Source of the DNA: Nitrospira sp. bin75
Lineage (GTDB): Bacteria > Nitrospirota > Nitrospiria > Nitrospirales > UBA8639
Assembly: GCA_002238765.1 (NCBI GenBank)
Contig: MPMZ01000005.1
Span: 1-32,000, forward strand
DNA length: 32,000 nt
Reading direction: 5' to 3'
The notes under the pieces were generated by a model. The model made no database searches and had not been told where the DNA came from. It saw only the letters and a list, made by a program, of their open reading frames with translations. Numbering within the stretch: position 1 is the stretch's first letter; each line of letters starts with the position of its first letter. Of this stretch, positions 2,306-32,000 are shown piece after piece. The translations under genes were made by a program, and so were the position numbers.

Positions 2306-3373
2306 TCATGCAATCCTGGAGAGTAAGTTCTCGGCAAGAGAATTTACCTCCCCTTGACTAAACATCTGCCTTTGATTTCCAACATACTGGGCGATTTGAT
2401 TATCGGACAGCGTTTTCACATATTGAAATTCCTGATTCGGCCTGTGATTCATTAAGCAGAGGATGTTTTTCGGAGATATTTTTTTGTCTCCCCAGTGGTT
2501 GGAAAAGTTATCGATATCCCCTCTCTCAACCGCCTTATTCAGTAACACAAAAATCGCAAAATTACTTCTCTTTAATTGCTTAATCGGAGAAAACAACTCC
2601 GGGTTCTCCACTGAATCCCTGCTCCAATTCTTTGTTTCCACCAAATAAAGACCGGTGGGTCCGACGACAACGTGATCTATCTGTATTGAATATATTTTAT
2701 CGTCATTATTCCTGTCATGCACAGGTTGGGAAAATTTCAACCTGTAATCGTTGATGACGATATGCGTATCAGGCAGTCTTGATAATTCCCGCGCCACCCT
2801 TTCCTCACCTTCGGCTCCGTAAAACAGGGATTTGTGTTTCCTGAAAACCGAAAGGATTTTTTCCTGTTCTTCTATATCACTGGCTGAATAGCGTTCCACC
2901 CAATTATCGGCGTTATTTCTTCTATCCTCTATTTCCGACCTTATACTGTTAATCTTTGTAAATCCTTTTCTGAAAGGTCTTCTCAATTCTTCCTCAAAAG
3001 AGATTTCCAAAATTTTCTTTCTCTTTGTTAATCTCTTTTTCCGAAAAAAGAAAAACAGCCGCAACAACATGTTTCGTTTTTCGTTTCCGGCAAGGGTCCC
3101 TTTCAGTTCTTCCAATTCATTTATTAGTAAAGATTCTCTTTCCTGAATTTTCCGATGAAGTTTCAATGATAATCTTTCATATTCTGACTCAAGATCAACG
3201 ACTTCCTGCATCAGGATTTCGCGGTATTCTTCCCTGATACGATTCAGAGAACTCTTGCAATCATTATGGAACGACCGAATTTCATCCATCGTTCTGAAGG
3301 CACCTATCCCCTCGCTTTCAAGTTCAGCAGTTAACTGAGTCAGTGAACCCACTTGCCTGTAAATCGTCGCCAT
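2306..3373 (-). CDS. NERD (nuclease-related domain) protein with long N-terminal coiled-coil region
   Basis: 355-aa ORF. The C-terminal half carries the NERD-type core IQIDHVVVGPTGLYLVETKNW. The N-terminal half is K/E/R/L-rich and heptad-like. The gene is visibly much more A/T-rich than its flanks. Confidence 0.75.
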   Translation of the reverse strand: MATIYRQVGSLTQLTAELESEGIGAFRTMDEIRSFHNDCKSSLNRIREEYREILMQEVVDLESEYERLSLKLHRKIQERESLLINELEELKGTLAGNEKRNMLLRLFFFFRKKRLTKRKKILEISFEEELRRPFRKGFTKINSIRSEIEDRRNNADNWVERYSASDIEEQEKILSVFRKHKSLFYGAEGEERVARELSRLPDTHIVINDYRLKFSQPVHDRNNDDKIYSIQIDHVVVGPTGLYLVETKNWSRDSVENPELFSPIKQLKRSNFAIFVLLNKAVERGDIDNFSNHWGDKKISPKNILCLMNHRPNQEFQYVKTLSDNQIAQYVGNQRQMFSQGEVNSLAENLLSRIA

Positions 3374-3530: not shown

Positions 3531-3839
3531 ATGAAAATCGTCGGCCGTGATCGAATCATCGGCTTTCACTGGGACGAGGGCAACGCTAGGAAGAGCGTCG
3601 ACAAGCACGGCGTCACCCGGTCCGAAACGGAGGAAACGTTTCTGAACGAACCGCTTCTGGTCGTCGAGGACGTTGGCCACAGCCGATCCGAGTTACGGTT
3701 CCATGCTCTCGGTGTCACCAACGCCGGGCGCCGACTACATGTGACCTTTACTTTGCGAGAAGGGAATACCAAAATTCGCGTCATTTCCGCCCGAGACATG
3801 AGCCGTAAGGAGCGAGACCGCTATGAACAGGAAACGTAA
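3531..3839 (+). CDS. brnT: BrnT-family type II toxin (ribonuclease toxin, DUF497)
   Basis: 102-aa ORF with a FHWDEGNARKSVDKHGV.. start typical of BrnT (F-x-WD-x-x-K/N..KHG). It overlaps the downstream antitoxin ORF by 17 nt. Confidence 0.8.
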   Translation: MKIVGRDRIIGFHWDEGNARKSVDKHGVTRSETEETFLNEPLLVVEDVGHSRSELRFHALGVTNAGRRLHVTFTLREGNTKIRVISARDMSRKERDRYEQET

Positions 3840-8840: not shown

Positions 8841-8970
8841 GTTGTTCCCCTCACCCTACCCTCTCCCACAAGGGGAGAGGGTTCTCTCATCCCACTTCTT
8901 CTCTCCAGGCGGGAGAGAATTCCCTTCTCACTCCCTCTCCCTGGACGGGAGAGGGTTGGGGTGAGGGTGA
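8841..8970. repeat. GC-rich REP-like element, three tandem hairpin units inside an outer inverted repeat
   Basis: Hairpins ccctctccc/gggagaggg (8859-8881), ttctctcc/ggagagaa (8899-8919) and ccctctccc/gggagaggg (8934-8956). Outer arms are ccctcaccc (8848-8856) and gggtgaggg (8959-8967). The last unit is near-identical to 318-360. Confidence 0.75.
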
Positions 8971-8975
8971 AGAAA

Positions 8976-18111: not shown

Positions 18112-19146
18112 CTAAAGGGGTTTGCGAGCCAGGAAACAGTACAACGGCGTGAAGATCCCCGACTTGCCACCCGCGACGTAGGCGTCTGCGGTTCGATCCA
18201 GGAGACGGACGACTTCCGCGGAGCCCTTCGGAAAGAGCCGCAGCACCTCGGCCAGCTTCGATCCCGCGATACAACATCTGCGGCCCCATGGAAGCCTGCA
18301 CACGAGGTTACCCAGTGTCCCGTACCGCGTCTCCATGGGTTGATACCAGGGTGTGGACGGCCCCTCCTTGACGTCGCGGTCCTTCCCCTCGATGACCTGA
18401 AATCCCGCCGCTTCGAGCGCACGATTCACTTCCCCGAACGTCGCGATGTCCTTCAGCGCAATGCCACGCATAAGTTCCCGCTTGATGGCCCGGTGCCGGC
18501 TGTCGTTCGGATCGTACTTGTCCGTCAGACACATGTCCTGACCCCAGAACAGGGCTCCGGGTTTCAATACACGGAATATCTCCGCGAACGCGCGTGGCTT
18601 GTCCGGCGCATGGCACGTTGACTCGATGGCATAACCCCGGTCGAACGTCTCGTCTTTGATGGCGCTCATATCCATGAAGCTGCACGTCTCGTAATCGACC
18701 ATGTGGTCGAGCCCCGCCTCGGCGTTCAACCGTTTCGCATTTGCCAACTGGATGTGATTGATGTTGATCCCGACAACCCGGACACCGGCCTCACGGACGA
18801 CCCGGCGCATCGGGCCGCCGATCCCGCAACCGACATCGACCACCGTCATGCCGGGGTGCAACTCCAGCTTGGCGATCATCAACCGCTGGTGCCGGACTTT
18901 GGAATCCCCCAGACTCTCCTGAGGCGTGAGGGGTGCGAAGTGCAGGGATTCGCCCCAACCGTACACCATGAACTCGCTGCAAAGATCATAGTAGTCTTTT
19001 ACCGTTTGGGTGTGGTCGTATCCGTTCACGCCAGCAGCCTCCGGCGTCGCCCGGTCGATCCAGCCGTCGAAGTGCTCCACGCGACGGGTGACGTCCCCCT
19101 CCCGGTACGCTTCCTTGAGCGCGTGCAGAAGTTTGCCTAGTTGCAT
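18112..19146 (-). CDS. sterol C-24 methyltransferase family protein (ERG6/SMT-like), paralog 1
   Basis: 344-aa ORF with SMT region I variant YYDLCSEFMVYGWGESLHFAP, SAM motif VVDVGCGIGGP, IESTCHAPD, and the Sterol_MT_C-type end GGKSGIFTPLYCFLARKP. RBS GGAAGGAG lies before the ATG. Confidence 0.88.
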   Translation of the reverse strand: MQLGKLLHALKEAYREGDVTRRVEHFDGWIDRATPEAAGVNGYDHTQTVKDYYDLCSEFMVYGWGESLHFAPLTPQESLGDSKVRHQRLMIAKLELHPGMTVVDVGCGIGGPMRRVVREAGVRVVGININHIQLANAKRLNAEAGLDHMVDYETCSFMDMSAIKDETFDRGYAIESTCHAPDKPRAFAEIFRVLKPGALFWGQDMCLTDKYDPNDSRHRAIKRELMRGIALKDIATFGEVNRALEAAGFQVIEGKDRDVKEGPSTPWYQPMETRYGTLGNLVCRLPWGRRCCIAGSKLAEVLRLFPKGSAEVVRLLDRTADAYVAGGKSGIFTPLYCFLARKPL

Positions 19147-19238
19147 GATGAGATTTCTCCTTCCACTTTTGTGTCCACTGCGAAAACCGTGTCAGCAGTG
19201 GAGAGGACGGCGCCACCGGCGGCCTCGTCCATCGGCAC

Positions 19239-19577
19239 TCATTCCGAACCATCCGGATAGAATTGCCTGCAATACCGTCGATACGCGCCAATTTCCCCGT
19301 CCGAGCGACAGAGTAGCGGGCGGGGCCGATGCTGTTTTCGGCCCCAGATGACGACGTCCTGCAACACGTCCCGGCTCTGAGCCGCCATGATGATTTTGTT
19401 CATGAGCCTGGTGCGCAGGCGTAACGGCAGGAAGCGCATGCCCACGATCGGCCGCTTCGGTCTCAGGATTTGACGCACGTGGCTGACCAGCACCAGTTCG
19501 ACGAGTCTGCCGTCGATGGGCGTAGTCAGCACCCACAAACATGTGAAATCAGTCTCATGTCGTCTCCTCTCTGTCAA
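19239..19577 (-). CDS. possible small hypothetical protein between the regulatory module and SMT paralog 1 (start uncertain: TTG 19577 / TTG 19538 / GTG 19532 / ATG further in)
   Basis: It is the only frame in the 19147-19540 gap with protein-like composition and G/C-rich third positions (..PIDGRLVELVLVSHVRQILRPKRPIVGMRFLPLRLRTRLMNKIIMAAQSRDVLQDVVIW..). No family recognised and no clear RBS. Confidence 0.3.
   Translation of the reverse strand: MTERRRHETDFTCLWVLTTPIDGRLVELVLVSHVRQILRPKRPIVGMRFLPLRLRTRLMNKIIMAAQSRDVLQDVVIWGRKQHRPRPLLCRSDGEIGAYRRYCRQFYPDGSE
19526..19558 (-). other. candidate leader uORF, copy 1 (MRLISHVCGC*)
   Basis: The minus strand reads GAGAGGAGAcgacATG AGA CTG ATT TCA CAT GTT TGT GGG TGC TGA. 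The RBS, the ATG and the first six codons are conserved with the copy at 29284-29346. Confidence 0.3.
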
Positions 19578-19703
19578 CTCGTCCGCCTATTGTCTTCCCG
19601 GATCGTGTCCCGAGGCCTGGCGTAAAAGAGTTTTGCCCCACGCGCCTGCCAGCGGGCGGGTAGAAACATTCAGGATGCCACGGCAGATAATTTGAAACGC
19701 ACC

Positions 19704-19732
19704 ACTGTAGCCTACTGAAACCATGGAGTCTA
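19704..19732 (-). promoter_or_regulatory. candidate minus-strand promoter inside module copy 1
   Basis: On the minus strand TAGACT (19727-19732), a 17-nt spacer, then TACAGT (19704-19709). The same geometry occurs in copy 2 (TAGACT-17-TATAAT). Confidence 0.35.
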
Positions 19733-19867
19733 GTATTATGTGTTGCACTCCTATAATTTTATACTTGTCATTCCACAGGTGAAGAGACACCGACGAGGCA
19801 GGGGCTTCCGCCTCGTTGGAACATAAGGCCAAGGAGCTTGGACGTCATGCAGTGCAATAAATGATGC

Positions 19868-19896
19868 TTGCATATCTTGTTTGGCTCAGCTATAAT
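19868..19896 (+). promoter_or_regulatory. candidate plus-strand promoter for SMT paralog 2
   Basis: TTGCAT (19868-19873), a 17-nt spacer, then TATAAT (19891-19896), about 105 nt upstream of the GTG start at 20004. The -10 box is conserved in copy 2. Confidence 0.5.
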
Positions 19897-20003
19897 GTTA
19901 CTTCAGGATTTCTGTCCCGGCAACCCGAGTGTCACGGCCCTGCCCTCCCGAAAACGCGTGACAACGACCAGGACAAATCGTACGAATCCGGAAGAGTAAT
20001 CGA

Positions 20004-21035
20004 GTGAACCCTACGCCCGCCAAACAATCCAATTCTCGTTCCCTCGCGGATCTGGCCCCGGATGAAGTCAAATCCACGGTCGATGGATACACCGCGATCT
20101 ACGACGCCGGCCTGGAGAGCAGGAAAGAGCGTTATCAATCGCTCGTCAATCACTACTACGACTTGGTGACCGATTTTTTCGAATTCGGCTGGGGCCAGTC
20201 TTTTCACTTTGCCCCACGGCAACGAGGCGAGAGCTTCAAGGCGTCCCTGCTCAAGCACGAACAATTTCTCGCCGATCGGTTGTCCCTGAAACCGGGAATG
20301 CAGGTACTTGACGTGGGGTGCGGGGTAGGAGGTCCGATGGGTGCTCTGGCCCGCTATTCCGGGGCCAGCTTTGTCGGTATTAACAATAACGCCTACCAGA
20401 TCAAGCGCGCGAAACTGCACACACGGGATGTCGCATCGTTATGCCGCTTCATCTGCGGCGACTACATGCAGATTCCCGAAGGTGACGACCAGTACGATGC
20501 CGCCTTCGCCATCGAGTCAACGGCCCACGCACCGGACAAAACGGCGGCGTTCCGGGAGATCTTCCGCGTCCTGCGTCCGGGGGCCTGTTTCGCAGGCTAC
20601 GAATGGTGTCTCACCGATGAATACGATCCGGAGAACGCGAAGCACCTGAGGATCAAGAACGATATCATGGTGGGGGGTGGGTTACCGGATATCGCCGTCA
20701 CGTCAAAAATCTGCACCGCATTGCGCACGGCCGGATTCGAACTCCTGGAAGCCTGCGACCGCGCCCCCGAATCGGATCCGGAAATGCCCTGGTACCGCGC
20801 CTTGCAGGGTCGAGACCTCAGCATGGGGAGTATTCCGCGTACCCCTGTCGGCCGCGCCTTGACCAATTTGGTGTTACGGGTTGGGGAGAAATTGCGGCTG
20901 GTTCCGGAGGGCGCCCGCGAGGTCAGCACGCTGTTGAATGCAGGGGCGGACGCGCTGGTCGAAGGCGGCAAATCCGGAATTTTTACTCCGATGTTTTTTT
21001 TCCTGGCACGCAAACCCCGTCGCTCGGAAGACTGA
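20004..21035 (+). CDS. sterol C-24 methyltransferase family protein (ERG6/SMT-like), paralog 2
   Basis: 343-aa ORF with canonical SMT region I YYDLVTDFFEFGWGQSFHFAP, SAM motif VLDVGCGVGGP, IESTAHAPD, and C-terminal GGKSGIFTPMFFFLARKP. It uses a GTG start preceded by GGAAGAG. Confidence 0.9.
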   Translation: MNPTPAKQSNSRSLADLAPDEVKSTVDGYTAIYDAGLESRKERYQSLVNHYYDLVTDFFEFGWGQSFHFAPRQRGESFKASLLKHEQFLADRLSLKPGMQVLDVGCGVGGPMGALARYSGASFVGINNNAYQIKRAKLHTRDVASLCRFICGDYMQIPEGDDQYDAAFAIESTAHAPDKTAAFREIFRVLRPGACFAGYEWCLTDEYDPENAKHLRIKNDIMVGGGLPDIAVTSKICTALRTAGFELLEACDRAPESDPEMPWYRALQGRDLSMGSIPRTPVGRALTNLVLRVGEKLRLVPEGAREVSTLLNAGADALVEGGKSGIFTPMFFFLARKPRRSED

Positions 21036-21124: not shown

Positions 21125-24100
21125 TCAAGACAAAGAATAGGTGGGAACCGCTTCAGGCAAGGGCGCCGTCGCGTCGGCAGCAGAGACGGCGGAGGCGGTC
21201 AGTTCCAGCCGGGCCCGACGCCGCTGCTCGTAAAGACCGAGCGCGTGCAGGGGAAAATACTGCCGATACAGGACGTAGTCCAACAGCGCCGTACGGAAAA
21301 AGATCCCGGCCATGTCTTGTTTGGGCCATGTCCCATCCGCTTCCTGGGTGTCGAGCAAAAACCGGGCGCCCCGCGAAATCGCGGTCCAGTTCGAATCCCC
21401 CGCCTCGAGGAGCGCAAGCATGGCCCACGAAGTTTGGATGACCTGACTTTCCTCATGCGCGACGTAGCGGCCGGTCAGGCACCCGCTGTGGTGCTCACCC
21501 CATCCCCCGTCTTCCCGCTGGCGGTCCAGTAACCACCGGCAGGCCAGACGTAGGGCCGGATCACCGGGACGGGCCCCGGCGGCCAGCAGCCCCCTGACCC
21601 CGAAGAAGGTGCCGTAGATGAACTGAACGCCCCAGACGCCGCGCCACGACCCATCGCTGGCCTGGTTCCGGCGAAGCCAGGTGTCAGCCCGTGAGACGGC
21701 GCTCATCATCGCCCCATCCGTGATTTGCGGGAAGTGCTCCTGACAGGCGGCGAGCGCCGCGAGACAAGACGCGGTGCACTCGACGTAGGAATGTTCGGTC
21801 GTCGACTCGCCGAACATCTCGGCCGGATTCAGCCACTCAAGAGGAACCACGGAGCGTTGCGCCTCGTAGCTCCCAAAACCGCCATCGCGGTTCTGACCGC
21901 GCAACATGAACCGAACCGCTTCGTCGAGCATTGTCGTGCTCGTGGCCTCGCAGTCCGCGGCGATAATCCCAAGCACCGCTTCCGCGGTGCAGTCGGTCAC
22001 CGGCCAGCCGTGCCATCCCCCTGGAAAACACCAGCCGCCCTTGGGGTCGCTCCGATAGGCCTCGCGAAATCCTTCGAAGCTGGTACCGATTTGTTCCCGG
22101 CGCAGGAAATCGGCTCCGCGTTGGAGGGCGGTTCGAACCCCGTCGAACTCGGGCACCGTCGCCAGCGCCTGCAGGGCGAATCCGGTATCCCACGAGGAGC
22201 TTCTCGCTCCGGTCACTCGCGCTCCACACTCCTCGTCTTCCCAGATCCAGCCGTCCAGCTTCGCGAACGCCTGCCGGCAGTCTGAATCGTTTGGATCACG
22301 CAGCCATAACGCAAGAATGTTCAGGAAGCCGCTGACCGGAGAGATGCTCGTGTGGCTGGTGGTTTGCAGCTCCCATTTGATGTGCCGAATGATCGATTCC
22401 ATACATCGGGCGCGCAGACGTTTGCCGTGGAACCGCTCGACTACCCGCGCCAACCCATATCCGGCACGGAGCCACACGCTGGGTCGCGCGTACAGGTCGG
22501 CGCTTCGCAAGCGATTGCGGCCCGCGGAAAAATTCACGTTGGCAAACCCCTGGGGGAACAACTCCTCTCGTAACGACGCGATCGTGGGCGTGACGGGTGC
22601 TTGAAACCGATGCGGGTAAATCGCCGCCATCGCCATATAGATGAGCCGGGTATGGCAGTACCAATTCGAGGGGTGTAACACGATCCAGCGCGGCAAGATC
22701 CACAACTCCGGGAGAATGGCGTTGACCCCGCGCCAGTCGTAGAGATGGAGAAGCGCCAGCCAGAACTTCCCCCAACTCGGGATATTGAGAACCCCTTCTG
22801 CTTGCATGAATCGACGGGCCGGCTCGATTAACGGATCATCCCGTTCGATACCGAGTAATCTCGCCGCGACGTACACCAGGGTGGTGACAAACAGGTTGGG
22901 TGGTGAGTGCTCGTGTAAACCCCATACGCCTTCCCGGAGACGGGTCCGTTCGAAGGAGCGTAGCACACGCCGGCACCGGCCGGGATCGAGCGGCCGCTCC
23001 ATCATGTGGAGCAATAACACATATTGCGCGGTCAGCATGGGACACCACACCATCTCACCCTCCCAAGCGCCATCCTCACCCTGGAGACGTAACAGACGCG
23101 CGCACGCGCTCTTCAAGGCCGGTTCGGCATAGGGTGACGCAACTTCCCTCGGGCGGATGGACTGGGGGTTACTCACGCTCGACGGCATGGAGACCAATAG
23201 CGCACGAGCCAAGGTGTCCCGAATTCGCTCGTCTTGTGCTCCGCCCTCGCCTCTCGCCTTGCGCAGATGTATGACGCCACGCAGGAGCCACTGGAGACGA
23301 ACGGCGAGCGCCTGAACGACGTCGCAGGCCCTCCGCCAAGCGAACTGGTCGCAGGATCGCGGAATCGCCCCGGCAACCGCCCGAAACACCATCGCGCAAC
23401 CCGCGAAACTCATATGGGATACCGATATGTCTTCACAGGCGAGCAAACGCATGGTCTCGTTGCGGAACGCGGAACTTGCCCGCCAACGCCGGTAGATCGC
23501 GTGTCTGACTGCCACCACCTCGGCCCGGTGATCGGCAAAGGTCTCATAGAGCTCCATGGCAAGGAGCTCGGGAGTGTGGGTCGCTTGGAAACGCTTTGTG
23601 GTGAAGTCGTGAAAGTCCTTGCCTTCGGCCAGCGTCAGCGCATCGCCGAAACCCAGGGGCATTCCCACCGCCGTCAGGGGATGGTAGTGCCCGGCCGCAT
23701 CGCCGATCAGCACTCGATGGGGGCTCCCGTACGTGACGCGCGGACTCAGTTCATTGGCCGCGGCCTGGAATTGCCCCGCCCGTAGCGCTTCGATAAACGC
23801 AGGCCTGAGTGTTTCCGGCAACACACCGGCATACGCGTCCGACAGAAAGCCAATCCGGTCCCAGGGTGTCCAGCCGTCCGATGGGACATCGACGATGACC
23901 CGGACGCAATGATCTCCCAAACGGTACATGAGAATTGGACCCGGTCCACCACACAACACGTGCCCATAACCCTCCAGCGGTAAACGCACCCCTCTCAATG
24001 TGACCCCCACCATCCGCGAGCAGGTCTTCGGTTTGATCGATAAGCCCAAGGATCGACGCACGATTGAGGCCCGGCCGTCGGCGCCGACAATCCGCGCGGC

Positions 24101-24550
24101 GGATAGGGATTTCTCTGTACCGTTGCAGGAAAACGTGACGCGCGCGTCTTCCACTGAACGGACCCACGCGTGGGGAATAAAGTCGACACCCGGTTCGCTC
24201 TCGATCGCTTCACGCAGATTCGAGACGATCGCCGCATGCTCGCACGCCAAACCGTGAAGTCCCTCCGGATAAGGGAGCACGATCGGCTCCGAGCCGTCTT
24301 CCGGGAACACGACAAATCCCTTACCGGTGGTGCTGAGGGGCTGCGTATCGAGCCTGATGCCGAAATCGCGTAACATCCGCACGGCAAGCGGATGCAGCCA
24401 TTCGCCCGCCATTCGTTTGGAAGCATTGGGATTGGCTTCGAGCAGAGCCACCCTGGCGCCGTTCCGCGCGTGAGCGAGCGCGCACAAGCTGCCTGCCGGA
24501 CCCGCGCCGACGATGGCAACGTCGTAGCGCCGAACAGTGGCGTCACTCAT
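21125..24550 (-). CDS. single-ORF fusion of squalene monooxygenase (epoxidase, N-terminal ~470 aa) and oxidosqualene cyclase (C-terminal ~650 aa)
   Basis: N-terminal YDVAIVGAGPAGS (FAD) and GDAAGHYHPLTAVGMPLGFGDA (squalene-epoxidase motif). The C-terminal part has QW-type repeats (GEDGAWEGE, RDGGFG, SDGSWRG, EDGGWGEH, ADGTWP) and the epoxide-protonating VTDCTAE motif (21980-22015). No in-frame stop lies between the domains. I place the start at ATG 24548-24550, which overlaps the cyp51 stop as ATGA; the ORF-track start 24787 adds 79 non-homologous residues. Confidence 0.88.
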   Translation of the reverse strand: MSDATVRRYDVAIVGAGPAGSLCALAHARNGARVALLEANPNASKRMAGEWLHPLAVRMLRDFGIRLDTQPLSTTGKGFVVFPEDGSEPIVLPYPEGLHGLACEHAAIVSNLREAIESEPGVDFIPHAWVRSVEDARVTFSCNGTEKSLSAARIVGADGRASIVRRSLGLSIKPKTCSRMVGVTLRGVRLPLEGYGHVLCGGPGPILMYRLGDHCVRVIVDVPSDGWTPWDRIGFLSDAYAGVLPETLRPAFIEALRAGQFQAAANELSPRVTYGSPHRVLIGDAAGHYHPLTAVGMPLGFGDALTLAEGKDFHDFTTKRFQATHTPELLAMELYETFADHRAEVVAVRHAIYRRWRASSAFRNETMRLLACEDISVSHMSFAGCAMVFRAVAGAIPRSCDQFAWRRACDVVQALAVRLQWLLRGVIHLRKARGEGGAQDERIRDTLARALLVSMPSSVSNPQSIRPREVASPYAEPALKSACARLLRLQGEDGAWEGEMVWCPMLTAQYVLLLHMMERPLDPGRCRRVLRSFERTRLREGVWGLHEHSPPNLFVTTLVYVAARLLGIERDDPLIEPARRFMQAEGVLNIPSWGKFWLALLHLYDWRGVNAILPELWILPRWIVLHPSNWYCHTRLIYMAMAAIYPHRFQAPVTPTIASLREELFPQGFANVNFSAGRNRLRSADLYARPSVWLRAGYGLARVVERFHGKRLRARCMESIIRHIKWELQTTSHTSISPVSGFLNILALWLRDPNDSDCRQAFAKLDGWIWEDEECGARVTGARSSSWDTGFALQALATVPEFDGVRTALQRGADFLRREQIGTSFEGFREAYRSDPKGGWCFPGGWHGWPVTDCTAEAVLGIIAADCEATSTTMLDEAVRFMLRGQNRDGGFGSYEAQRSVVPLEWLNPAEMFGESTTEHSYVECTASCLAALAACQEHFPQITDGAMMSAVSRADTWLRRNQASDGSWRGVWGVQFIYGTFFGVRGLLAAGARPGDPALRLACRWLLDRQREDGGWGEHHSGCLTGRYVAHEESQVIQTSWAMLALLEAGDSNWTAISRGARFLLDTQEADGTWPKQDMAGIFFRTALLDYVLYRQYFPLHALGLYEQRRRARLELTASAVSAADATAPLPEAVPTYSLS

Positions 24551-25956
24551 TGGACAATGCTCGCTTGCGAGCGGCGGCGATAGCGGACCCGGCACGGTGC
24601 CTTGGGACCCGTCACCCAACTCCCGTAATTCGGGGCGGGAAACGCCGTGTCGAGATGAAAATCGAAGCGATCGAGCAGCACGGTCCAGATCGCTTTCAGT
24701 TGCAGGTAAGCAAAAAGTTTCCCCATACACACGTGTTTGCCGCCGCCGAAACCGATCAGGGCGTACTGATGTTGCTTGTCCTCGCAAGCGGGAGGGTCAA
24801 AACGCTCCGGAGAGAACCGTTCCGGGTCGGCAAACACGTGGGGCAGCCGGTGAGAGACTGCAGGGGACACCATGGCCAGGGTGCCGGCAGGCACGAGATG
24901 GTCTCCGTAACGCACGGGTTTCAGCACCTTGCGGATCAGCATGATCAACGGCGGGTGCATCCGCTCACACTCACGGACGGCGTGTTCCAGCGCCACTTGT
25001 CGTTTGAGACTAGCAAGGGTCATGGCTCCTTCCTCACGGTAAACGTCTTGCATCTCGTCTCTGACCCGCGCCAGGTATGATGGTGCCCTCACGAGTTCCA
25101 GACCGGTCCAGGTTGCGAGCACCGCGCTGGTGTGTTGGCCCGCGAACAAGACCGTCAGCAAGATCCCAGAAATTTCGTCGTCGCTCAAAGCACGGCCATC
25201 CTTGTACCGGGCGTGCATGAGTGCCTGCATGAAATCATCGGGACAGGCCCCGGAAAACCGGCGTTCCGCCATGATCCGGCTAAAGAGTTCGACCACGTTT
25301 CGCCGGGCCCGGTCGCGGCTTCGATGCGCCGCGGTCGGAAGTCTGGGGAGAAAAAATCCCAAGGTGTTGATGCCTTTTTGCAGATCGTGATACGCCTCGG
25401 CAAAACCCGAGTCCACCTGATCCCGGACTTCCTGTCCAATGAGGCAACGACTGGCGATCTTGACGGTGAGTTCGTTCAACGCGACCGGCAGATCGGCTTC
25501 ACCCTCCTCGCCGAGGGCGTCGGCGAACCAGCTCGTCTCCTCGAACATGATGCGCGCAAACCTGCTCATCGCGGCCTCGCGGAGCGCCGGAAACAAGAAT
25601 CCCAGTTGCTCGTCCATGAGTTCGGGGGGGGCATCGTACGCCACGCCGCGTCCGAAGATGGGTACCGTGAATTGATAGACGGCTTTGGCGTTCAGTTGAT
25701 CCTCGGGCGCCCTGAAGTAAACTTCGTGGGCTTCGGGTCCGGTGAAGAGAACAAACTCTCGGGGACCGAGCCGGAACCGGAAGAGATCGCCCTGCTCGCG
25801 CCAGCCGCGGCTCAACATCGAGACCGGATCCTTGAGAAAATCCGGCAGATGACCGATCAACGGCCATCCACCCCCAAGCTCGGGAACGGCTTTTGCGACG
25901 CGCGGCGAGAACTGCGCCGAACGCAGGGTTGCCACACTGTGAGACCGATCTTCCAC
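24547..25956 (-). CDS. cyp51: sterol 14-alpha-demethylase, cytochrome P450 family 51
   Basis: CYP51 signatures: B'-helix YQFTVPIFGRGVAYDAP, I-helix LFAGQHTSAV, and heme loop FGGGKHVCMG. The preferred start is GTG 25954-25956, with GGAGAG 8 nt upstream overlapping the preceding gene's TGA. The alternative ATG at 26022 would overlap the upstream gene by 55 nt. Confidence 0.9.
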   Translation of the reverse strand: MEDRSHSVATLRSAQFSPRVAKAVPELGGGWPLIGHLPDFLKDPVSMLSRGWREQGDLFRFRLGPREFVLFTGPEAHEVYFRAPEDQLNAKAVYQFTVPIFGRGVAYDAPPELMDEQLGFLFPALREAAMSRFARIMFEETSWFADALGEEGEADLPVALNELTVKIASRCLIGQEVRDQVDSGFAEAYHDLQKGINTLGFFLPRLPTAAHRSRDRARRNVVELFSRIMAERRFSGACPDDFMQALMHARYKDGRALSDDEISGILLTVLFAGQHTSAVLATWTGLELVRAPSYLARVRDEMQDVYREEGAMTLASLKRQVALEHAVRECERMHPPLIMLIRKVLKPVRYGDHLVPAGTLAMVSPAVSHRLPHVFADPERFSPERFDPPACEDKQHQYALIGFGGGKHVCMGKLFAYLQLKAIWTVLLDRFDFHLDTAFPAPNYGSWVTGPKAPCRVRYRRRSQASIVQ

Positions 25957-27062: not shown

Positions 27063-28176
27063 CGCCGTTCTCCGTCCCCCGCACCATGTACTCCCGCCAC
27101 TTGCGCACGGTCACGTTTTGAAAAGCCCGCACCGCCGGATTGTACTCGATGGGGGGAGCGTCCCAATGTTGCTCGTAACCCTGCTGCTCCGCTTCGACCG
27201 CAACGCCGTCCTGGGCGAGTAAAGGGCCGATGAGTACACGGTTCGAGATCTTCAACACCGCGGTCATGGCGAAACGGGGAATACGAACAGGCAGCAAGGG
27301 CACCTTCAGCGACTTGAAGTAAAACAGGAAAAACGCCCGGGTAGTACGCTCATCGATCGGCAGGACGAAAAGCCAGTGTTTGATCGCGTCATCGGTGTTC
27401 GACCACTGGTAGGGGTATTGATAGCACAGTTCCATATGAGTGGTATCGAGCCGGTGGTGATCGACAAACAGTCCGGAGATGCGCCCGCGCCCGACCCGCG
27501 TATCGTAGGCCACGTGCACGTCGTCGCCGACGGTCTCGCAACGGGTGAGAGTGGCGTCTTCTTCGAAGGGACGGTATTGACGGTGCAGGTGGGCGTGGGT
27601 GAAGTCGCTCACGTTATCGATCACCATCGAGTGGTGGGCCGACCAGGTGAAAACCAGCGGCTCGCAGGCCCACCGCTCGGGTCCCTCGAGTTCCGGGATG
27701 TCCGGGATCCGGCGCAACTCCGCCCGCTCCGGTTCCCCGGGGAACAACCAGACCAGACCGTATCGGACCTTCACGGGATAGGTTCTGAGCGGGAGCTTCG
27801 GGAGACCCCGTCCGGAGAGGTCGTGGGGGATCGCGACACAGCGTCCGTTTCCATCATACTGCCAGCCATGGTAGGCGCACACGAGCCGGCAGCCTTGCAC
27901 CTCGCCCAGGGAGAGTTTGAGCTGGCGATGCGCACAGCGATTCTCGATAGCGTGAAACGAGCCGTCCTTTCCCCGGAACAGCGCAATGGAACGTTTCCAG
28001 AAAATGACCTCGACCACCGTCCCCGGTTTGACGCGGTGCACTTCCTCAACCGCGTACCAATAATCCGGGTCCATCCCCGCGGCACGGGCTTGCTGGCGCA
28101 AGCTGCCGGCTTCCTCGAAGCCGGGTGGCGCACCCGGCGCCGGAATCACGTTGAGCCTTCTTTTCGCGTTATCCAT
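27049..28176 (-). CDS. sdmA: Rieske [2Fe-2S] non-heme-iron oxygenase, SdmA-like (bacterial sterol C-4 methyl oxidase candidate)
   Basis: Rieske motif CAHRQLKLS..(x)..CAYHGW and a mononuclear-iron region DNVSDFTHAHLH. It is paired with an SDR gene as in the Methylococcus capsulatus sdmAB arrangement. The symbol is assigned by context and family, not by a search. Confidence 0.7.
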   Translation of the reverse strand: MDNAKRRLNVIPAPGAPPGFEEAGSLRQQARAAGMDPDYWYAVEEVHRVKPGTVVEVIFWKRSIALFRGKDGSFHAIENRCAHRQLKLSLGEVQGCRLVCAYHGWQYDGNGRCVAIPHDLSGRGLPKLPLRTYPVKVRYGLVWLFPGEPERAELRRIPDIPELEGPERWACEPLVFTWSAHHSMVIDNVSDFTHAHLHRQYRPFEEDATLTRCETVGDDVHVAYDTRVGRGRISGLFVDHHRLDTTHMELCYQYPYQWSNTDDAIKHWLFVLPIDERTTRAFFLFYFKSLKVPLLPVRIPRFAMTAVLKISNRVLIGPLLAQDGVAVEAEQQGYEQHWDAPPIEYNPAVRAFQNVTVRKWREYMVRGTENGDAGV

Positions 28177-29287
28177 AGGCCTGGCTCGGAGAAAAATTGT
28201 CCACGGGTGCCGCGGCGGTCACGCACGGACGTTTCGCGAGCGGATTCGTGATCGCGTTGCGATGGTAGTGAAAGGCGTAAGCCTCACGAACCGCAGCACG
28301 GATACTGGTTGGCTGATAGCCGAGTTCCCGTTTCGCTTTGCTAGTGTCGGCGTGACGGCGCTTTCGTAACAGGCGGATGGCGCCGGGGGTGAACCGCTGG
28401 GGAAAGCTCGGGTGAAACCGGCTCAGATAAAAGCTCGCCACTTCCGAAAAGCCGAGCATCAGGCGGGTCGGAATCCGCCGGCACGGTCGCGGGAGTCCCG
28501 AGACTTCCTCGAACAGATCCAAGATCTCGGAGATGGTTTTGTACTCGCTGCTGAAGATGTACTTTTCGCCCGATCGTCCTTTGTGCATACACAACAGGTG
28601 TCCTTCGACAATGTCCCTCGCCGCGACAAACTCGAACCCCCCGTCGACGTAGGCGCGGATCTTGCGGTTGGTGTAGTCGCACAAGGTCCGTCCCAATCGC
28701 GAGGGGAAAAAATCACCGCCCCCGATCACCGCACAACACGTGGCGACCACGACGTCCTGTCCCTTCGCCGCGGCCTTCCAGCACTCGTGCTCGACGAGCG
28801 CTTTGCTGCGCTCGTAGGGCATCGTGCGCTCCATGGGATAGAACTGCATCGTCTCGTCGCTGGGAGAGGACGGATTATCCAGATCGTACCCGACCGCACT
28901 GAAAGAGCCCGTCACCACCACCCGGCCGGCCCCCGCCTCCCGCGCAGCCTGCAGCACGTGGCGGGTACCGAGCACGTTGCACTCGAACACTTCCCGCCGA
29001 TGGGCGCGGTTGCCTTCGATGGTCGAGACCTTGGCCGCGACGTGATAGACGCCTTGACAGCCTTCGAGCGCGCGCCTGGTGGCATTCAAGTCTCGAATGT
29101 CACCGAACGAGCGTTCAACATCAAGGCCTTCCAACGCCTCGTTGTTGTCCTCGTGTCTCAGCAACACCCGGACCCGGACGCCATCGTCGAGCAGCCGGCG
29201 CACAAGATTGGCGCCCACGTGCCCGGCCGATCCGGTAACGAAAACAGGCGGCGGAGAACCGGCGAATGCGCCCGATCCTGAGGTCAT
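28169..29287 (-). CDS. sdmB: NAD(P)-dependent SDR (3-beta-HSD / epimerase family), SdmB-like (C-4 decarboxylase/ketoreductase candidate)
   Basis: Rossmann VFVTGSAGHVGANLVRRLL and catalytic YERSK (YxxxK). It overlaps the sdmA-like start by 8 nt and is the first gene of the five-gene unit. RBS GGAAGGA lies before the ATG. Confidence 0.7.
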   Translation of the reverse strand: MTSGSGAFAGSPPPVFVTGSAGHVGANLVRRLLDDGVRVRVLLRHEDNNEALEGLDVERSFGDIRDLNATRRALEGCQGVYHVAAKVSTIEGNRAHRREVFECNVLGTRHVLQAAREAGAGRVVVTGSFSAVGYDLDNPSSPSDETMQFYPMERTMPYERSKALVEHECWKAAAKGQDVVVATCCAVIGGGDFFPSRLGRTLCDYTNRKIRAYVDGGFEFVAARDIVEGHLLCMHKGRSGEKYIFSSEYKTISEILDLFEEVSGLPRPCRRIPTRLMLGFSEVASFYLSRFHPSFPQRFTPGAIRLLRKRRHADTSKAKRELGYQPTSIRAAVREAYAFHYHRNAITNPLAKRPCVTAAAPVDNFSPSQAYG

Positions 29288-29346
29288 CTAGTATCCTTCC
29301 GAAGTCTTGCCGTGGGAGCGCTTGCGCGATGTGAAATTAGTCTCAT
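29284..29346 (-). other. candidate leader uORF, copy 2 (MRLISHRASAPTARLRKDTR*), stop overlapping the sdmB-like ATG
   Basis: The minus strand reads GAGAAGAGAttccATG AGA CTA ATT TCA CAT ... AGA TGA, where the TGA (29284-29286) overlaps the sdmB ATG (29285-29287) as ATGA. The first six codons match copy 1 except for one synonymous CTG/CTA change. Confidence 0.3.
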
Positions 29347-29496
29347 GGAATCTCTTCTCTGTCAACTCGCTCACTAACTGTCTTCCCGGACCGTGTCCCA
29401 AGGGGTGTGGTAGGAGCGTTTTGCTCCACGAGGCTGCCGCCGGGCAAGAGCGGGACGGTGAGGGTGCCCATTCTTTTTAACAGCCTTGATTTACGT

Positions 29497-29525
29497 ATTA
29501 TAGCCCACTGAATGTTTTGAGTCTA
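29497..29525 (-). promoter_or_regulatory. candidate minus-strand promoter inside module copy 2
   Basis: On the minus strand TAGACT (29520-29525), a 17-nt spacer, then TATAAT (29497-29502). Confidence 0.4.
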
Positions 29526-29663
29526 GTATTATTTATTGCACTCTTTTGATACTCAGATCGACCTTCTGCCCGCTGAGGCTCACATCAACGAAGCGGGGCC
29601 GTGCCGCCTCGTCGAGTCGTGAGGCCTGGTAGCGGGCCATGCGGTGAGTGCAATGCATGATAC

Positions 29664-29692
29664 TGGAATCTCTTATTTCATTAAGCTATAAT
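29664..29692 (+). promoter_or_regulatory. candidate plus-strand promoter for the RND transporter
   Basis: TGGAAT (29664-29669), a 17-nt spacer, then TATAAT (29687-29692). It aligns position-for-position with the copy-1 promoter. Confidence 0.4.
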
Positions 29693-29842
29693 GCGCCCTC
29701 AGGCTTCCTGCTGCGGCACCCTGAGTGTCCGCGCCCTCCCCTACGGAAGCCACATGGCGATGATCGAAATGCACCCCCAGCACACAACCGCCAAGGGAAC
29801 CAGCCGGGTCGCCGCGGCTGCACGCCGCCGGACAGCGAAGGC

Positions 29843-32000
29843 ATGAGCTCCGCCACTCTGGACCGCTACACCGCGTTCATGTTGCGCCGCCGATGGCTGG
29901 TCCTCGCGTCGGCCGTGGCAGTCATGCTGGCTCTGACGGCCGGCGTCCAATTCATCAACATCTCCAACGACTGGCGTGACATGTTGGACGAGGACAATCC
30001 TCAACTCGTGGCATTCGACGCCTTGGAGGATACCTACACGGCCACCAATGCGGCGCTGGTCGCGGTCGCGCCCAAGGGCGGGTCGGTCTTCACCCGCGAG
30101 GCGCTCGGCGCCGTCGAGGAGTTGACCGAGGCCGCGTGGCGCGTGCCCTCGTCCACCCGGGTCGACTCCTTGACCAACTATAGCCACACCGAGTCGGTCG
30201 AGGACGATTTGAACGTCGAACGGCTCGTGGACGACGCGGGATCGCTGAGCGATGACGACCTCGCGCGGATCAAGGAAATTGCGTTAAACGAGCCCAGTGT
30301 CGCGGGCCGTCTCGTTTCCCACGACGGGCGCGTTGCCGGACTGGTCATCAGTTTCACCTTGCCCGAGCATTCGGACGCCGCGGAGATCCGGATTCTCAAC
30401 TATGTCCGCGGCCTCCTGGAAGAGGCCAGGGCGGCGCATCCGGACATCGCCTATCACGTCACCGGCAATGTCTTCGTGAACCGAGTCCTGACGAAGGCGG
30501 CCCAGGACGATATGGGAATTCTCGCGCCCGTCGCGTTCCTCGTCATCGTGTCCGTCGCCGCCATTCTGCTGCGCTCCCTGTTCGGCACGCTGTCCCTCGT
30601 CGCGGTGCTCCTTTTCGTCGTCGGCTCGACCATGGGCGTCATCGGCTGGACCGGTTTGGTGCTCAACGCCGCCAACTCCGGCGTTCCCCTCATCATCATG
30701 ACGCTCGCCATCGCGCACTCGGTCCACGTCGTCGAGAAGATCGTGTCCGGCATGAGCCGGGGTCTGGATAGGGACACGGCGGTCGTCGAATCGTTGCGCG
30801 ACAATGCCTGGCCGGTCTTCCTGACGACGGCCACGACGATGATCGGGTTCCTCAGCATGAACGCCTCGGACTCTCCGCCCTTCCGGGTCCTCGGTAATCT
30901 TGTGGCGTTCGGGATGTTCTGCGCCTACGTGTATTCCATGACGCTTCTTCCGGCGCTGCTGTTGGTCCTGCCGTTGCGCGCGAGTCCCGTACGCGCCGGG
31001 CGTTCCAATTTCTTCGATCGCCTCGGCGCCTTCGTCGTCGCGCGCCGCGGGCTCCTGCTCTGGTCCATGGCCGCCGTCGCGATTACCCTGATAGCCGGCG
31101 TGCCCCGCGTCGAGCTGACGGACAACTGGACGACGCATTTGGATGAACGTTACGAGTTTCGGCGCGATACGGACTTCGTCATCGAGAACCTGTCCGGCGT
31201 AGAGACGCTGGAGTACAGCCTGAGAGCCGGACGCGAAGGCGGCATCACCGATCCCGGCTATCTGCGCAAGGCCGACGCTTTGGCCGAATGGTACCGGGCC
31301 CAGCCGGAAGTGGCTCACGTCCGGGCGTTTTCAGACATCATGAAGCGCCTCAACAAGAACATGCACGGCGACGACCAGGCCTTTTACCGGCTGCCCGAAA
31401 ACCCCGAGCTTGCCGCGCAGTACCTGCTGCTCTACGAACTTTCGGTTCCCTTCGGCATGGACCTCAACAACCGAATGGACATCGGCAAAACCTCGACGCG
31501 GATGACCGTCACGCTCCACAGACTGAAGTCCGAGGAGATGCGTGAGCTCGAAGTGCGCGGGCAGGAGTGGCTCCGCGCCAACGCGCCCGACCTCGCGTCC
31601 GAGGCATCGGGGTACAGCCTCATCTTCGCCCATCTGGCCATACGGAACACCATGAGCATGTTGTGGGGCACGATCACGGGTATGGTCCTCATTTCGCTGC
31701 TCCTGATCGCGATTTTCAGAAGCGTACGCCTCGGCCTCATCAGCCTCGTGCCCAACCTCATCCCCTCGTTTATGGCTTTCGGCGTTTGGGGCTATCTGTA
31801 CAGCGAGGTGGGGCCCGCCGGCTCGCTCGTGACCGCGATCGCCTTCGGCACCGTCGTCGATGACACGATTCACCTCATGAGCAAGTATCTGAAGGCGCGT
31901 CGCGAAGGACTTTCCGCGTCCGAGGCGGTATGCTACGCTTTTCGTTCGGTCGGTCAGGCGTTGTTCACCACAACCATGATGCTGGTGCTGGGCTTCCTGG
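29843..32000 (+). CDS. RND-superfamily MMPL/HpnN-type transporter (BstA-like sterol transporter candidate), C-terminus beyond window
   Basis: Own translation from ATG 29843 gives MSSATLDRYTAFMLRRRWLVLASAVAVMLALTAG..., then a periplasmic loop, a TM bundle (..LIIMTLAIAHSVHVV.., ..TTATTMIGFLSMN..), a second loop, and a second bundle with FGTVVDDTIHLMSKY. The frame is open to 32000. It is absent from the ORF track because it is open-ended. Confidence 0.85.
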   Translation, partial: MSSATLDRYTAFMLRRRWLVLASAVAVMLALTAGVQFINISNDWRDMLDEDNPQLVAFDALEDTYTATNAALVAVAPKGGSVFTREALGAVEELTEAAWRVPSSTRVDSLTNYSHTESVEDDLNVERLVDDAGSLSDDDLARIKEIALNEPSVAGRLVSHDGRVAGLVISFTLPEHSDAAEIRILNYVRGLLEEARAAHPDIAYHVTGNVFVNRVLTKAAQDDMGILAPVAFLVIVSVAAILLRSLFGTLSLVAVLLFVVGSTMGVIGWTGLVLNAANSGVPLIIMTLAIAHSVHVVEKIVSGMSRGLDRDTAVVESLRDNAWPVFLTTATTMIGFLSMNASDSPPFRVLGNLVAFGMFCAYVYSMTLLPALLLVLPLRASPVRAGRSNFFDRLGAFVVARRGLLLWSMAAVAITLIAGVPRVELTDNWTTHLDERYEFRRDTDFVIENLSGVETLEYSLRAGREGGITDPGYLRKADALAEWYRAQPEVAHVRAFSDIMKRLNKNMHGDDQAFYRLPENPELAAQYLLLYELSVPFGMDLNNRMDIGKTSTRMTVTLHRLKSEEMRELEVRGQEWLRANAPDLASEASGYSLIFAHLAIRNTMSMLWGTITGMVLISLLLIAIFRSVRLGLISLVPNLIPSFMAFGVWGYLYSEVGPAGSLVTAIAFGTVVDDTIHLMSKYLKARREGLSASEAVCYAFRSVGQALFTTTMMLVLGFL

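Follow-up and report, generated by a model that had tools for sequence, protein, structure and literature searches.

A Nitrospirales bacterium that lives in association with sponges carries, within its sterol gene cluster, two intergenic regions that are homologous to each other and front genes that are not. They lie in the 32,000 nt of contig MPMZ01000005.1 (assembly GCA_002238765.1) that were analysed as a whole and are here called 'the window', and are referred to as copy 1 (19541-19952) and copy 2 (29329-29748) of one module with two outward-facing arms, left and right. It is likely that the two are paralogues of a divergent promoter region that is native to the sterol cluster of this clade and that has been reused, or captured, in the course of rearrangement; to judge by comparison with related loci, the module is not a free-standing regulatory element. 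As genome rearrangements would have reused one divergent promoter, a common control region probably serves the synthesis of the sterol core, the methylation of the side chain and a transporter.

The history proposed is one of reuse by local deletions, fusions and duplications, and not of movement by a mobile element. The left arm would be the promoter and leader of an outer-membrane beta-barrel (OMP) gene heading an OMP-KshA-SMT1 operon. In copy 1 a 1.7-kb deletion would have taken out the OMP gene together with two thirds of the KshA-like one, with SMT1 then being read from the OMP promoter across the pseudogene that is left. An older fusion in copy 2, common to at least four other genomes, would have joined the promoter, the leader and the first ~10 OMP codons to sdmB, previously in one operon with SMT2, and the remnant start would there open a short open reading frame (ORF) ending on the sdmB start codon. 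The right arms would drive SMT2 (copy 1) and an RND pump with a sterol-sensing domain (copy 2).

How alike are the two copies? With copy 1 as blastn query against the whole window, copy 2 is returned at 67.1% identity over 429 columns (E=3e-27), and the pair, which makes up the top families of a repeat finder, is the sole long repeat of its kind there. The local alignment score is 124, far above the 18.4 +/- 2.0 (maximum 27) of 300 dinucleotide-preserving shuffles (z=53), a control named in the initial annotation of this DNA, which had proposed the duplication from the letters of the window. The copies are collinear with few indels and an overall identity of 66%, distributed as a mosaic: 77-83% in the left 75 nt, ~80% around the minus-strand promoter and 73-77% at the plus-strand promoter. 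The spacer at 19660-19723 drops to 37-53%, and the most similar stretches reach 82% over 50 nt (19566-19615) and 79% over 100 nt. Every block which that annotation had listed is present and in its order, and the promoter hexamers and the hairpin of both copies are where it had put them; its collinear regions stand, while at their right ends the similarity extends ~25 nt further than it had drawn them. The surrounding genes, which it had taken to be unrelated, are by Pfam indeed four different transcription units: on the left a KshA remnant with SMT1 versus sdmB, and on the right SMT2 versus an MMPL/RND pump.

Origins of the two copies

The comparison that reveals the source of the module took in 11 related Nitrospirales loci; of these, L007-L009 and L018-L021 were reached through homologues of sdmB. 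Two of them, L009 and L020, have the order SMT1<-KshA-like Rieske gene (342 aa)<-OMP_b-brl<-amine oxidase, divergent from SMT2->sdmB->sdmA->ERG24->CYP51->SQMO/OSC, and L008 has the OMP gene and SMT2 immediately back to back; on these layouts sdmB follows SMT2 in one operon in these genomes. Over ~215 nt on its left side the module can be aligned with DNA upstream of intact OMP_b-brl genes in L008, L009, L012 and L016, and more weakly with that upstream of the L020 OMP gene. The homology of the two copies ends inside the remnant of a gene start, and the first block of the module (atgtgaaatNagtctcatg...tctcNtctc) comprises the Shine-Dalgarno site of the OMP_b-brl gene, its ATG and its opening codons, MRLISH... 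in the window corresponding to MRRISYRISMF... in the intact genes. This block had been offered as a candidate operator, and the duplication as one of regulatory DNA only. The latter statement is right in that the homologous DNA is promoter-bearing and wrong for this block, which, on the alignment with OMP genes, is a mark of origin by deletion and fusion and not an operator.

Copy 1 is, by its collinearity with L009, in the original position. Window 18900-19540 is collinear with L009 4626-5266 at 88%, after which 19544-19657 matches L009 7005-7107, and the deletion relative to L009 can be mapped to the base: 1,738 bp, with KshA codons 1-243 and all of the OMP gene except its first codons missing. 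Copy 1 had been placed between the SMT1 unit and SMT2. It does not adjoin SMT1, for between them stands a 99-codon remnant of the KshA-like Rieske gene, 89% identical to residues 244-342 of the intact 342-aa L009 protein; its frame is still open and is fused to 13 codons from the module leader. A recent duplicate of sdmA had been considered for this neighbour and was rejected, as its identity to sdmA is 22%, against the much closer match to the separate KshA-like gene of L009. In relatives the place between OMP and SMT1 is taken by an intact KshA-like gene, and for that reason this oxygenase of steroid-degradation type is counted as belonging to the biosynthetic cluster. No terminator-like or promoter-like site was found between copy 1 and SMT1, so that SMT1 would plausibly be read from the left promoter of copy 1 through the pseudogene remnant, as in the L009 operon.

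The left half of copy 2 is a paralogue fused to sdmB. The fusion is common to L007, L010, L011 and L018, where the counterparts facing sdmB are 81%, 74%, 67% and 72% identical, respectively, to that of the window. The stretch that separates the OMP remnant from the sdmB ATG looks like the 3' tail of SMT2, which fits sdmB having been severed from SMT2. In the window and in all four of these loci the in-frame remnant ends ...AGA TGA over the sdmB ATG, the stop (29286-29284 in the window) and the start sharing an ATGA, and this overlap survives a 33-nt in-frame deletion in L011.

The right ~200 nt, consisting of promoter and leader, precedes different genes in different genomes: RND pumps (copy 2, L011 and twice in L018), RND fragments (L012, L016), SMT2 (copy 1; L007 8232-8356) and a 287-aa methyltransferase in L007, whose L010 counterpart is placed only by tblastn similarity to SMTs. 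The right leaders are alike as far as ...GTGGCGATGA and then differ by downstream gene, the SMT2-specific tail of copy 1 being common to L007 8232-8300. In copy 2 a 30-codon ORF (29754-29846, plus strand) starts at the conserved GTGGCGATGA and its stop overlaps the pump ATG, again as ATGA; its peptide is poorly conserved in L011 and L012, and the differences between window and L012 are mostly non-synonymous. In L007 a 12-codon ORF from the same GTGGCGATGA start ends likewise on the SMT start. The right-leader ORF may be another recycled gene start, and it is possible that the short ORFs of the two arms couple translation, for which the evidence at sdmB is weak because all five genomes descend from one fusion.

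Several loci carry further traces of rearrangement. L018 (1-4440; 1852-1997) has two tandem pump genes of the RND/MMPL type, each encoding 764 aa and each with its own right cassette and leader. In L012 (1164-1529) only pump residues 71-192 are left (94% identical to the window pump), between the right leader and an SMT-like gene, and this looks like another deletion placing a methyltransferase under the pump promoter. Upstream of SMT2, L009 (8815-8899) and L008 (8801-8884) have the remnant of a second SMT2 5' coding copy, 71-76% identical to window 20008-20102, and between remnant and gene an A+T-rich, promoter-like insert of ~65 nt with a diverged AGTGCAA box; as these remnants read, there is promoter turnover at SMT2 also in the 'ancestral-layout' genomes.

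Are there further copies in related genomes, for which the initial annotation proposed a search? There are, in front of sterol-cluster genes of other Nitrospirales. A two-block left-leader pattern, the first half of which is the 25-nt block discussed below, recovered 7 genomes, all entered as 'MAG: Nitrospirales bacterium' (MAG, metagenome-assembled genome), and module blocks are conserved across at least nine other genomes in both paralogous contexts. As the module is absent from L019 and L021, the latter a 4.8-Mb assembly with a differently arranged sterol cluster, it is not in all relatives. In the DNA sampled there are one or two copies per genome, all in sterol clusters; the strict form of the leader pattern, which would miss diverged copies, gives one match per genome in 7 representative genomes, and in JGI metagenomes the strict cassette pattern returned the same strain only (L017, 100% identical) and no new contexts.

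Promoter cassettes and the question of a regulator

Each copy contains two inverted and mutually homologous 48-nt promoter cassettes, each followed by an outward leader (Table 1). When 16 cassettes from both module halves are aligned in the direction of transcription, they read AGTGCAAT-NN-AT-R-ATACT, a -35 of T(G/A)GA(C/A)T, a 17-nt spacer ending GC and a -10 of TATA(A/G)T. The AGTGCAA positions are kept in 14-16 of the 16 and those of the -10 in 15-16, spacer positions vary, and the promoter core, with the AGTGCAAT box that precedes it, equals the -10 hexamer in degree of conservation. The -35/-10-like hexamers are conserved among homologues and their distance of 17 nt is within the 16-18 nt of sigma-70-type promoters; predicted transcription starts are near 19697 and 29490 on the minus strand and 19903 and 29700 on the plus strand. 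The nhmmer E values in copy 1 are 1e-12 for the left cassette (9e-8 with a model from right-type cassettes alone) and 6e-9 for the right one, and in copy 2 they are 3e-11 for the left, which also has 10/12 matches in a generic sigma-70 scan, and 1.5e-13 for the right (5e-9 with a model from left-type cassettes alone). Over the 127 kb of these genomes that were scanned, a right-only model finds left cassettes with E down to 5e-10 and a left-only model finds right ones at ~3e-9. The two promoters of one unit are thus inverted homologues, which explains the weak inverted blastn matches of copy 1 within the window. We infer that the cassettes are active sigma-70-type promoters, with the left one of copy 2 driving sdmB-sdmA-ERG24-CYP51-SQMO/OSC, and that the four units are co-expressed.

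Box-to-box spacing is held to 101-106 bp in 7 units, L018 included despite its different spacer sequence (101 bp in copy 1 and 104 bp in copy 2). The G+C-rich inverted repeat within the spacer, the hairpin of the initial annotation, is found in 6 homologues, decays without compensation and is absent from L018. Divergent promoter regions with shared control sites are familiar from araC-araBAD and bioA-bioBFCD of Escherichia coli. The module is like these in that a single intergenic region has two outward promoters and, at a set distance, repeated sites upstream of them, and unlike them in that its promoters are inverted homologues ~200 bp apart from start to start which do not overlap, and in that any operator is putative only.

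Within the DNA sampled, the cassette is restricted to sterol-cluster promoters. The AGTGCAANNNATNAT motif has four occurrences in the window, against 0.17 expected, each inside the modules, and its matches in related loci are all in the module or in SMT2 promoters. No cassette was found outside modules in ~127 kb of these genomes, nor in four loci searched separately, all of this being sterol-cluster surroundings. A further cassette upstream of the GPP34-P450 gene, where a weak resemblance had been suspected, was rejected: that region has its own TTGCCT-17-TATAGT and no box. As the units are homologous, conserved before sterol genes elsewhere, and keep core and box, the proposal of one shared cis-regulatory cassette for four sterol units is a fair description; it does not extend to the blocks collectively, which are a mixture of promoter core, box, remnant of a ribosome-binding site and start, and leaders.

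What, then, is the AGTGCAAT box for? There may be no dedicated regulator, the AGTGCAAT/A+T-rich segment being UP-like or otherwise an intrinsic part of a strong constitutive promoter, and the units simply having similar basal expression. We regard this as a serious contender, if a minority one: the segment is ~2-19 nt upstream of the -35, where an UP element would be, it is A+T-rich in a G+C-rich genome, and there is no regulator gene in the window or in the flanks of relatives. However, the best-conserved part is AGTGC and not an A/T tract, the 18-nt element is partly dyad-symmetric (AGT-N12-ACT around ATGCAT), the distance between boxes is maintained even where the spacer has been replaced (L018), and the box, in diverged form, survives in the otherwise different SMT2 promoters of L008. 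That the box binds a shared factor instead of acting in UP-like fashion has, in our estimation, slightly less than an even chance, and co-regulation through it is plausible. The more specific idea, in which the box, twice per unit, and the 25-nt leader block are sites of a dedicated regulator switching on core synthesis, C-24 methylation and export together, is tentative and on present indications somewhat unlikely. No transcription-factor domain was found in the main ORFs of the window, in agreement with the initial annotation, or among the genes called in flanking DNA of relatives; resemblances to Fur, IscR and SRE motifs, judged by eye, were too weak for a claim.

Leader blocks and the remaining alternatives

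Several points weigh against reuse of one promoter region as a full and simple account. The order of rearrangements has no unique reconstruction, and the duplication is old, since the identity of copy 1 to copy 2 (67%) does not exceed that to the modules of other genomes (66-70%). In the generic sigma-70 scan only the TAGACT-17-TATAAT of copy 2 passes, so three of the four promoters fail, and the DNA of relatives from which the cassette's restriction to sterol promoters is drawn is limited to ~±10 kb on either side of their sterol genes. The ATG of the OMP remnant is lost in L007 and L018, which have an in-frame TTG only, and this weakens the case for translational coupling. Finally, promoter reuse leaves unexplained the conservation of blocks in the right leader and, above all, of a 25-nt block in the left one (TGTCTTCCCGGAYCGTGTCCCRAGG in the window; TGTYTTCCCGRANCGTGTCMCGAGG), which is nearly invariant in 9 sequences whether the downstream gene is OMP, sdmB or the KshA remnant.

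Could these non-promoter blocks be cis-acting elements of the leader RNA, such as a riboswitch-like sensor or a site for a protein or a small RNA (sRNA)? In favour are the position of the 25-nt block in the transcribed leader and its persistence before differing genes, the small hairpins that can be drawn (GGAGC-AAAAC-GCUCC; CUCGGG-N6-UCCGGG), and the right leader, which also has conserved blocks, before three gene classes. The structured 5' untranslated elements envisaged in the initial annotation find nothing to sustain them. Rfam gives no match at gathering score in the window and none even at E<=10 in 19400-20100. The covariation analysis which it had recommended, done with RNAalifold on nine left leaders, gives 17 pairs in three small hairpins with a covariation term of +0.21, the pairs being invariant or broken with almost no compensatory changes (those of the gttttgccccacg hairpin are mostly invariant or wobble, with none), and none of the four leaders folds more stably than its dinucleotide shuffles (z +0.18, +0.77, +1.41 and +1.09). 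The long-range pairing candidate of the right leader has its 5' arm deleted in L007 (8215-8440) and L010. An RNA element of this sort is accordingly judged improbable; a linear protein- or sRNA-binding motif may be present in the leader, and the 25-nt block could bind a protein on DNA or RNA. A conserved leader peptide was also considered and rejected: a 28-codon ORF is present in copies 1 and 2 (VGQNSFTPGLGTRSGKT..., VEQNAPTTPLGTRSGKT...), but L008 and L012 read the block in another frame and its conservation is therefore not coding.

That the similarity is a functionless, decaying relic of an old segmental duplication, its blocks chance survivors, would fit the overall identity of just 66-67% and the uncompensated decay of the hairpin; it is very unlikely, as blocks are kept in at least nine other genomes and in both contexts while the spacers fall to 37-53%, and the box and -10 positions are kept in 14-16 of 16 cassettes. 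Scarcely tenable is carriage, now or in the past, by a small non-autonomous mobile element (a miniature inverted-repeat transposable element, MITE, or a Correia or REPIN-like element), for which an internal inverted repeat in each unit (the two cassettes) and nearby insertion sequences (IS481-like at the L007 edge, a DDE transposase in L019 and an rve-type one inside the L016 module) might be cited, since that repeat is the sole one, no terminal inverted repeats or target-site duplication were found at the dissimilar module ends, the strict patterns show no multicopy spread, copies in the DNA sampled are confined to the sterol cluster with a single leader match per representative genome, and the boundaries are gene-fragment junctions of deletions and fusions. 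Correia elements, ERIC and REPIN are promoter-bearing MITEs (PMC3575422), and the likeness to them is that of short, repeated, non-coding DNA with promoters; their terminal inverted repeats or target duplication are not found in the module, which in the DNA sampled has 1-2 copies per genome, in the sterol cluster only. The rve integrase-core insertion in L016 (5830-6930) sits in the module beside the right cassette and replaces the AGTGCAAT box, and the RND pump downstream is fragmented; as the sequence stands, it is a disruption of the unit and not carriage by the insertion sequence.

Promoter reuse by deletion and fusion has precedents. For putative mobile promoters Matus-Garcia et al. 2012 used a criterion of >=80% identity over >=50 nt, and the pairs in that survey had a mean of ~92% (PMC3575422). 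The module is comparable in being homologous DNA upstream of non-paralogous genes in one genome, with 82% over 50 nt in its best stretch, and differs in that its route can be traced through deletion and fusion junctions with remnants, and in being bidirectional, confined to one biosynthetic cluster and old (66% versus ~92%). In the E. coli long-term evolution experiment citT captured the rnk promoter by recent tandem duplication (Blount et al. 2012, cited in PMC3575422). There, as with the sdmB operon formerly read from the SMT2 promoter, a gene cut from its own promoter was put under a duplicated neighbouring one; the sdmB case, however, is ancient and known by comparison, and also brings a leader, ribosome-binding site and start codon. 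The kind of event is thus known, and the instance and motif are new.

The sterol locus and its significance

The gene layout of the window comes from Pfam scans and frame translation, and the features discussed are collected in Table 1.

Table 1. Genes, remnants, promoter cassettes and leader features around the two copies of the module
Feature	Position	Strand	Remarks
SMT1	18112-19146	-	Pfam and translation
ORF, 112 codons	19239-19577	-	Pfam match to last 50 positions of KshA_C only
KshA-like Rieske oxygenase remnant, codons 244-342 (99 codons)	19239-19535	-	between copy 1 and SMT1
Copy 1, OMP_b-brl start remnant	19541-19558	-	ATG 19558-19556, codons MRLISH; opens 10-codon ORF 19558-19526
Copy 1, Shine-Dalgarno site GAGAGGAGA of former OMP gene	19563-19571	-	kept in 9 homologues
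Copy 1, most conserved leader block tgtcttcccggatcgtgtcccgagg (TCCCGGA-N5-TCCCGAG), 25 nt	19591-19615	-	
Copy 1, leader block gttttgccccacg	19630-19642	-	on RNA, 5' arm and loop of hairpin of GGAGC-AAAAC-GCUCC type
Copy 1, left cassette	19703-19749	-	AGTGCAA box 19749-19735; -35 TAGACT 19732-19727; -10 TACAGT 19709-19704
Copy 1, GC-rich inverted repeat (cgacgaggc / gcctcgttg)	19791-19799/19810-19818		9 pairs, one G-T; in 101-bp spacer
Copy 1, right cassette	19851-19897	+	AGTGCAA box 19851-19865; -35 TTGCAT 19868-19873; -10 TATAAT 19891-19896
Copy 1, right leader	19903-20003	+	conserved with copy 2 to ~19975, then SMT2-specific to GTG 20004
SMT2	20004-21035	+	GTG start at 20004
Squalene monooxygenase-oxidosqualene cyclase fusion (SQMO/OSC)	21125-24787	-	
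Beyond SQMO/OSC, in order: CYP51, ERG24-type reductase, sdmA (Rieske protein)		-	
sdmB	28169-29287	-	ATG 29287-29285
Copy 2, upstream ORF MRLISHRASAPTARLRKDTR*, 20 codons	29284-29346	-	OMP N-terminal remnant and junction sequence
Copy 2, most conserved leader block tgtcttcccggaccgtgtcccaagg	29379-29403	-	
Copy 2, left cassette	29495-29542	-	AGTGCAA box 29542-29528; -35 TAGACT 29525-29520; -10 TATAAT 29502-29497
Copy 2, GC-rich inverted repeat	29588-29596/29604-29612		7/9 pairs; in 104-bp spacer
Copy 2, right cassette	29647-29694	+	AGTGCAA box 29647-29661; -35 TGGAAT 29665-29670; -10 TATAAT 29688-29693
Copy 2, right leader	29700-29846	+	to RND/MMPL pump ATG 29843
MMPL/RND pump with sterol-sensing-domain signal	from 29843	+	ATG at 29843

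To the left of the sterol cluster are a gene for a GPP34-P450 fusion, a PilX-like gene and reverse tricarboxylic acid (TCA) cycle genes. Both the fusion of a GPP34 (Golgi phosphoprotein 3) domain to a cytochrome P450 (16006-18075, plus strand) and the SQMO/OSC fusion (~1,140-1,220 aa) are kept in related loci. A BrnT-type toxin gene (3531-3839, plus strand) and a NERD-domain nuclease gene (2306-3373, minus strand) adjoin the reverse-TCA-cycle genes and are unrelated to the module. A family of G+C-rich palindromic repeats (CCCTCTCCC...GGGAGAGGG, 84-90% alike), at 315-362, 8854-8883 and 8893-8971 in two intergenic regions 8.5 kb apart, resembles REP (repetitive extragenic palindromic) elements or terminators.

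Whose cluster is this? Sterol clusters of sponge Nitrospirota have been reported (Brown et al. 2023, PMC10070321; Kelly et al. 2022, PMC9531527), and the genes of the window come in the same order as on JGIcombinedJ30088_10000835, a contig from Aplysina aerophoba described by Brown et al. 2023 (PMC10070321). That contig, of 32,339 bp, has SMT as genes 9 and 11, SMO/OSC as 12, ERG11 as 13 and ERG24 as 14; both of its SMTs were assayed in vitro, and one SMT that produces the 24-isopropyl side chain was placed in a sterol gene cluster (Brown et al. 2023, PMC10070321). Exact matches to the SMT1 protein are on contigs of MAG GCA_026713625.1 and of several ENA and JGI assemblies. Copy 2 is 100% identical in Ga0209021_1003807 (L017), and Ga0209021 is listed as an A. 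aerophoba metagenome in PMC10070321. The window therefore appears to be the A. aerophoba symbiont sterol cluster of Brown et al. 2023, whose organism can now be assigned to the Nitrospirales; the close relatives found are all titled Nitrospirales. The sdmB gene is unusually conserved, with more than 100 homologue clusters at 79-93% identity, MAGs labelled Gammaproteobacteria, Chromatiales and Gemmatimonadales among them, a spread that fits the proposal of Kelly et al. 2022 (PMC9531527) that sterol genes of sponge symbionts have been transferred horizontally. No description of the intergenic regions, their duplication or a promoter motif was found in the passages of PMC10070321 and PMC9531527 that were searched. 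On how bacterial sterol genes are controlled at the level of transcription, a non-exhaustive keyword search of the literature turned up nothing.

The locus is a clear and traceable case of operon rewiring by promoter reuse, in which the remnants, a start codon recycled as an upstream ORF and a truncated oxygenase, record the route. If one promoter unit fronts the core pathway, both methyltransferases and the RND/sterol-sensing pump, then their co-expression in one organism is probable and, if true, would support the view that bacteria make side-chain-alkylated sterols de novo and possibly export them; the cluster bears on the reliability of 24-isopropylcholestane as a sponge biomarker. Should there be a dedicated regulator, the box and the 25-nt leader block might be the first cis-regulatory code for bacterial sterol synthesis, no published one having come up in a limited literature search, and a handle on both the regulator and its signal. 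The 48-nt motif can be used for searching complete Nitrospirales genomes for the rest of the regulon and for the regulator.

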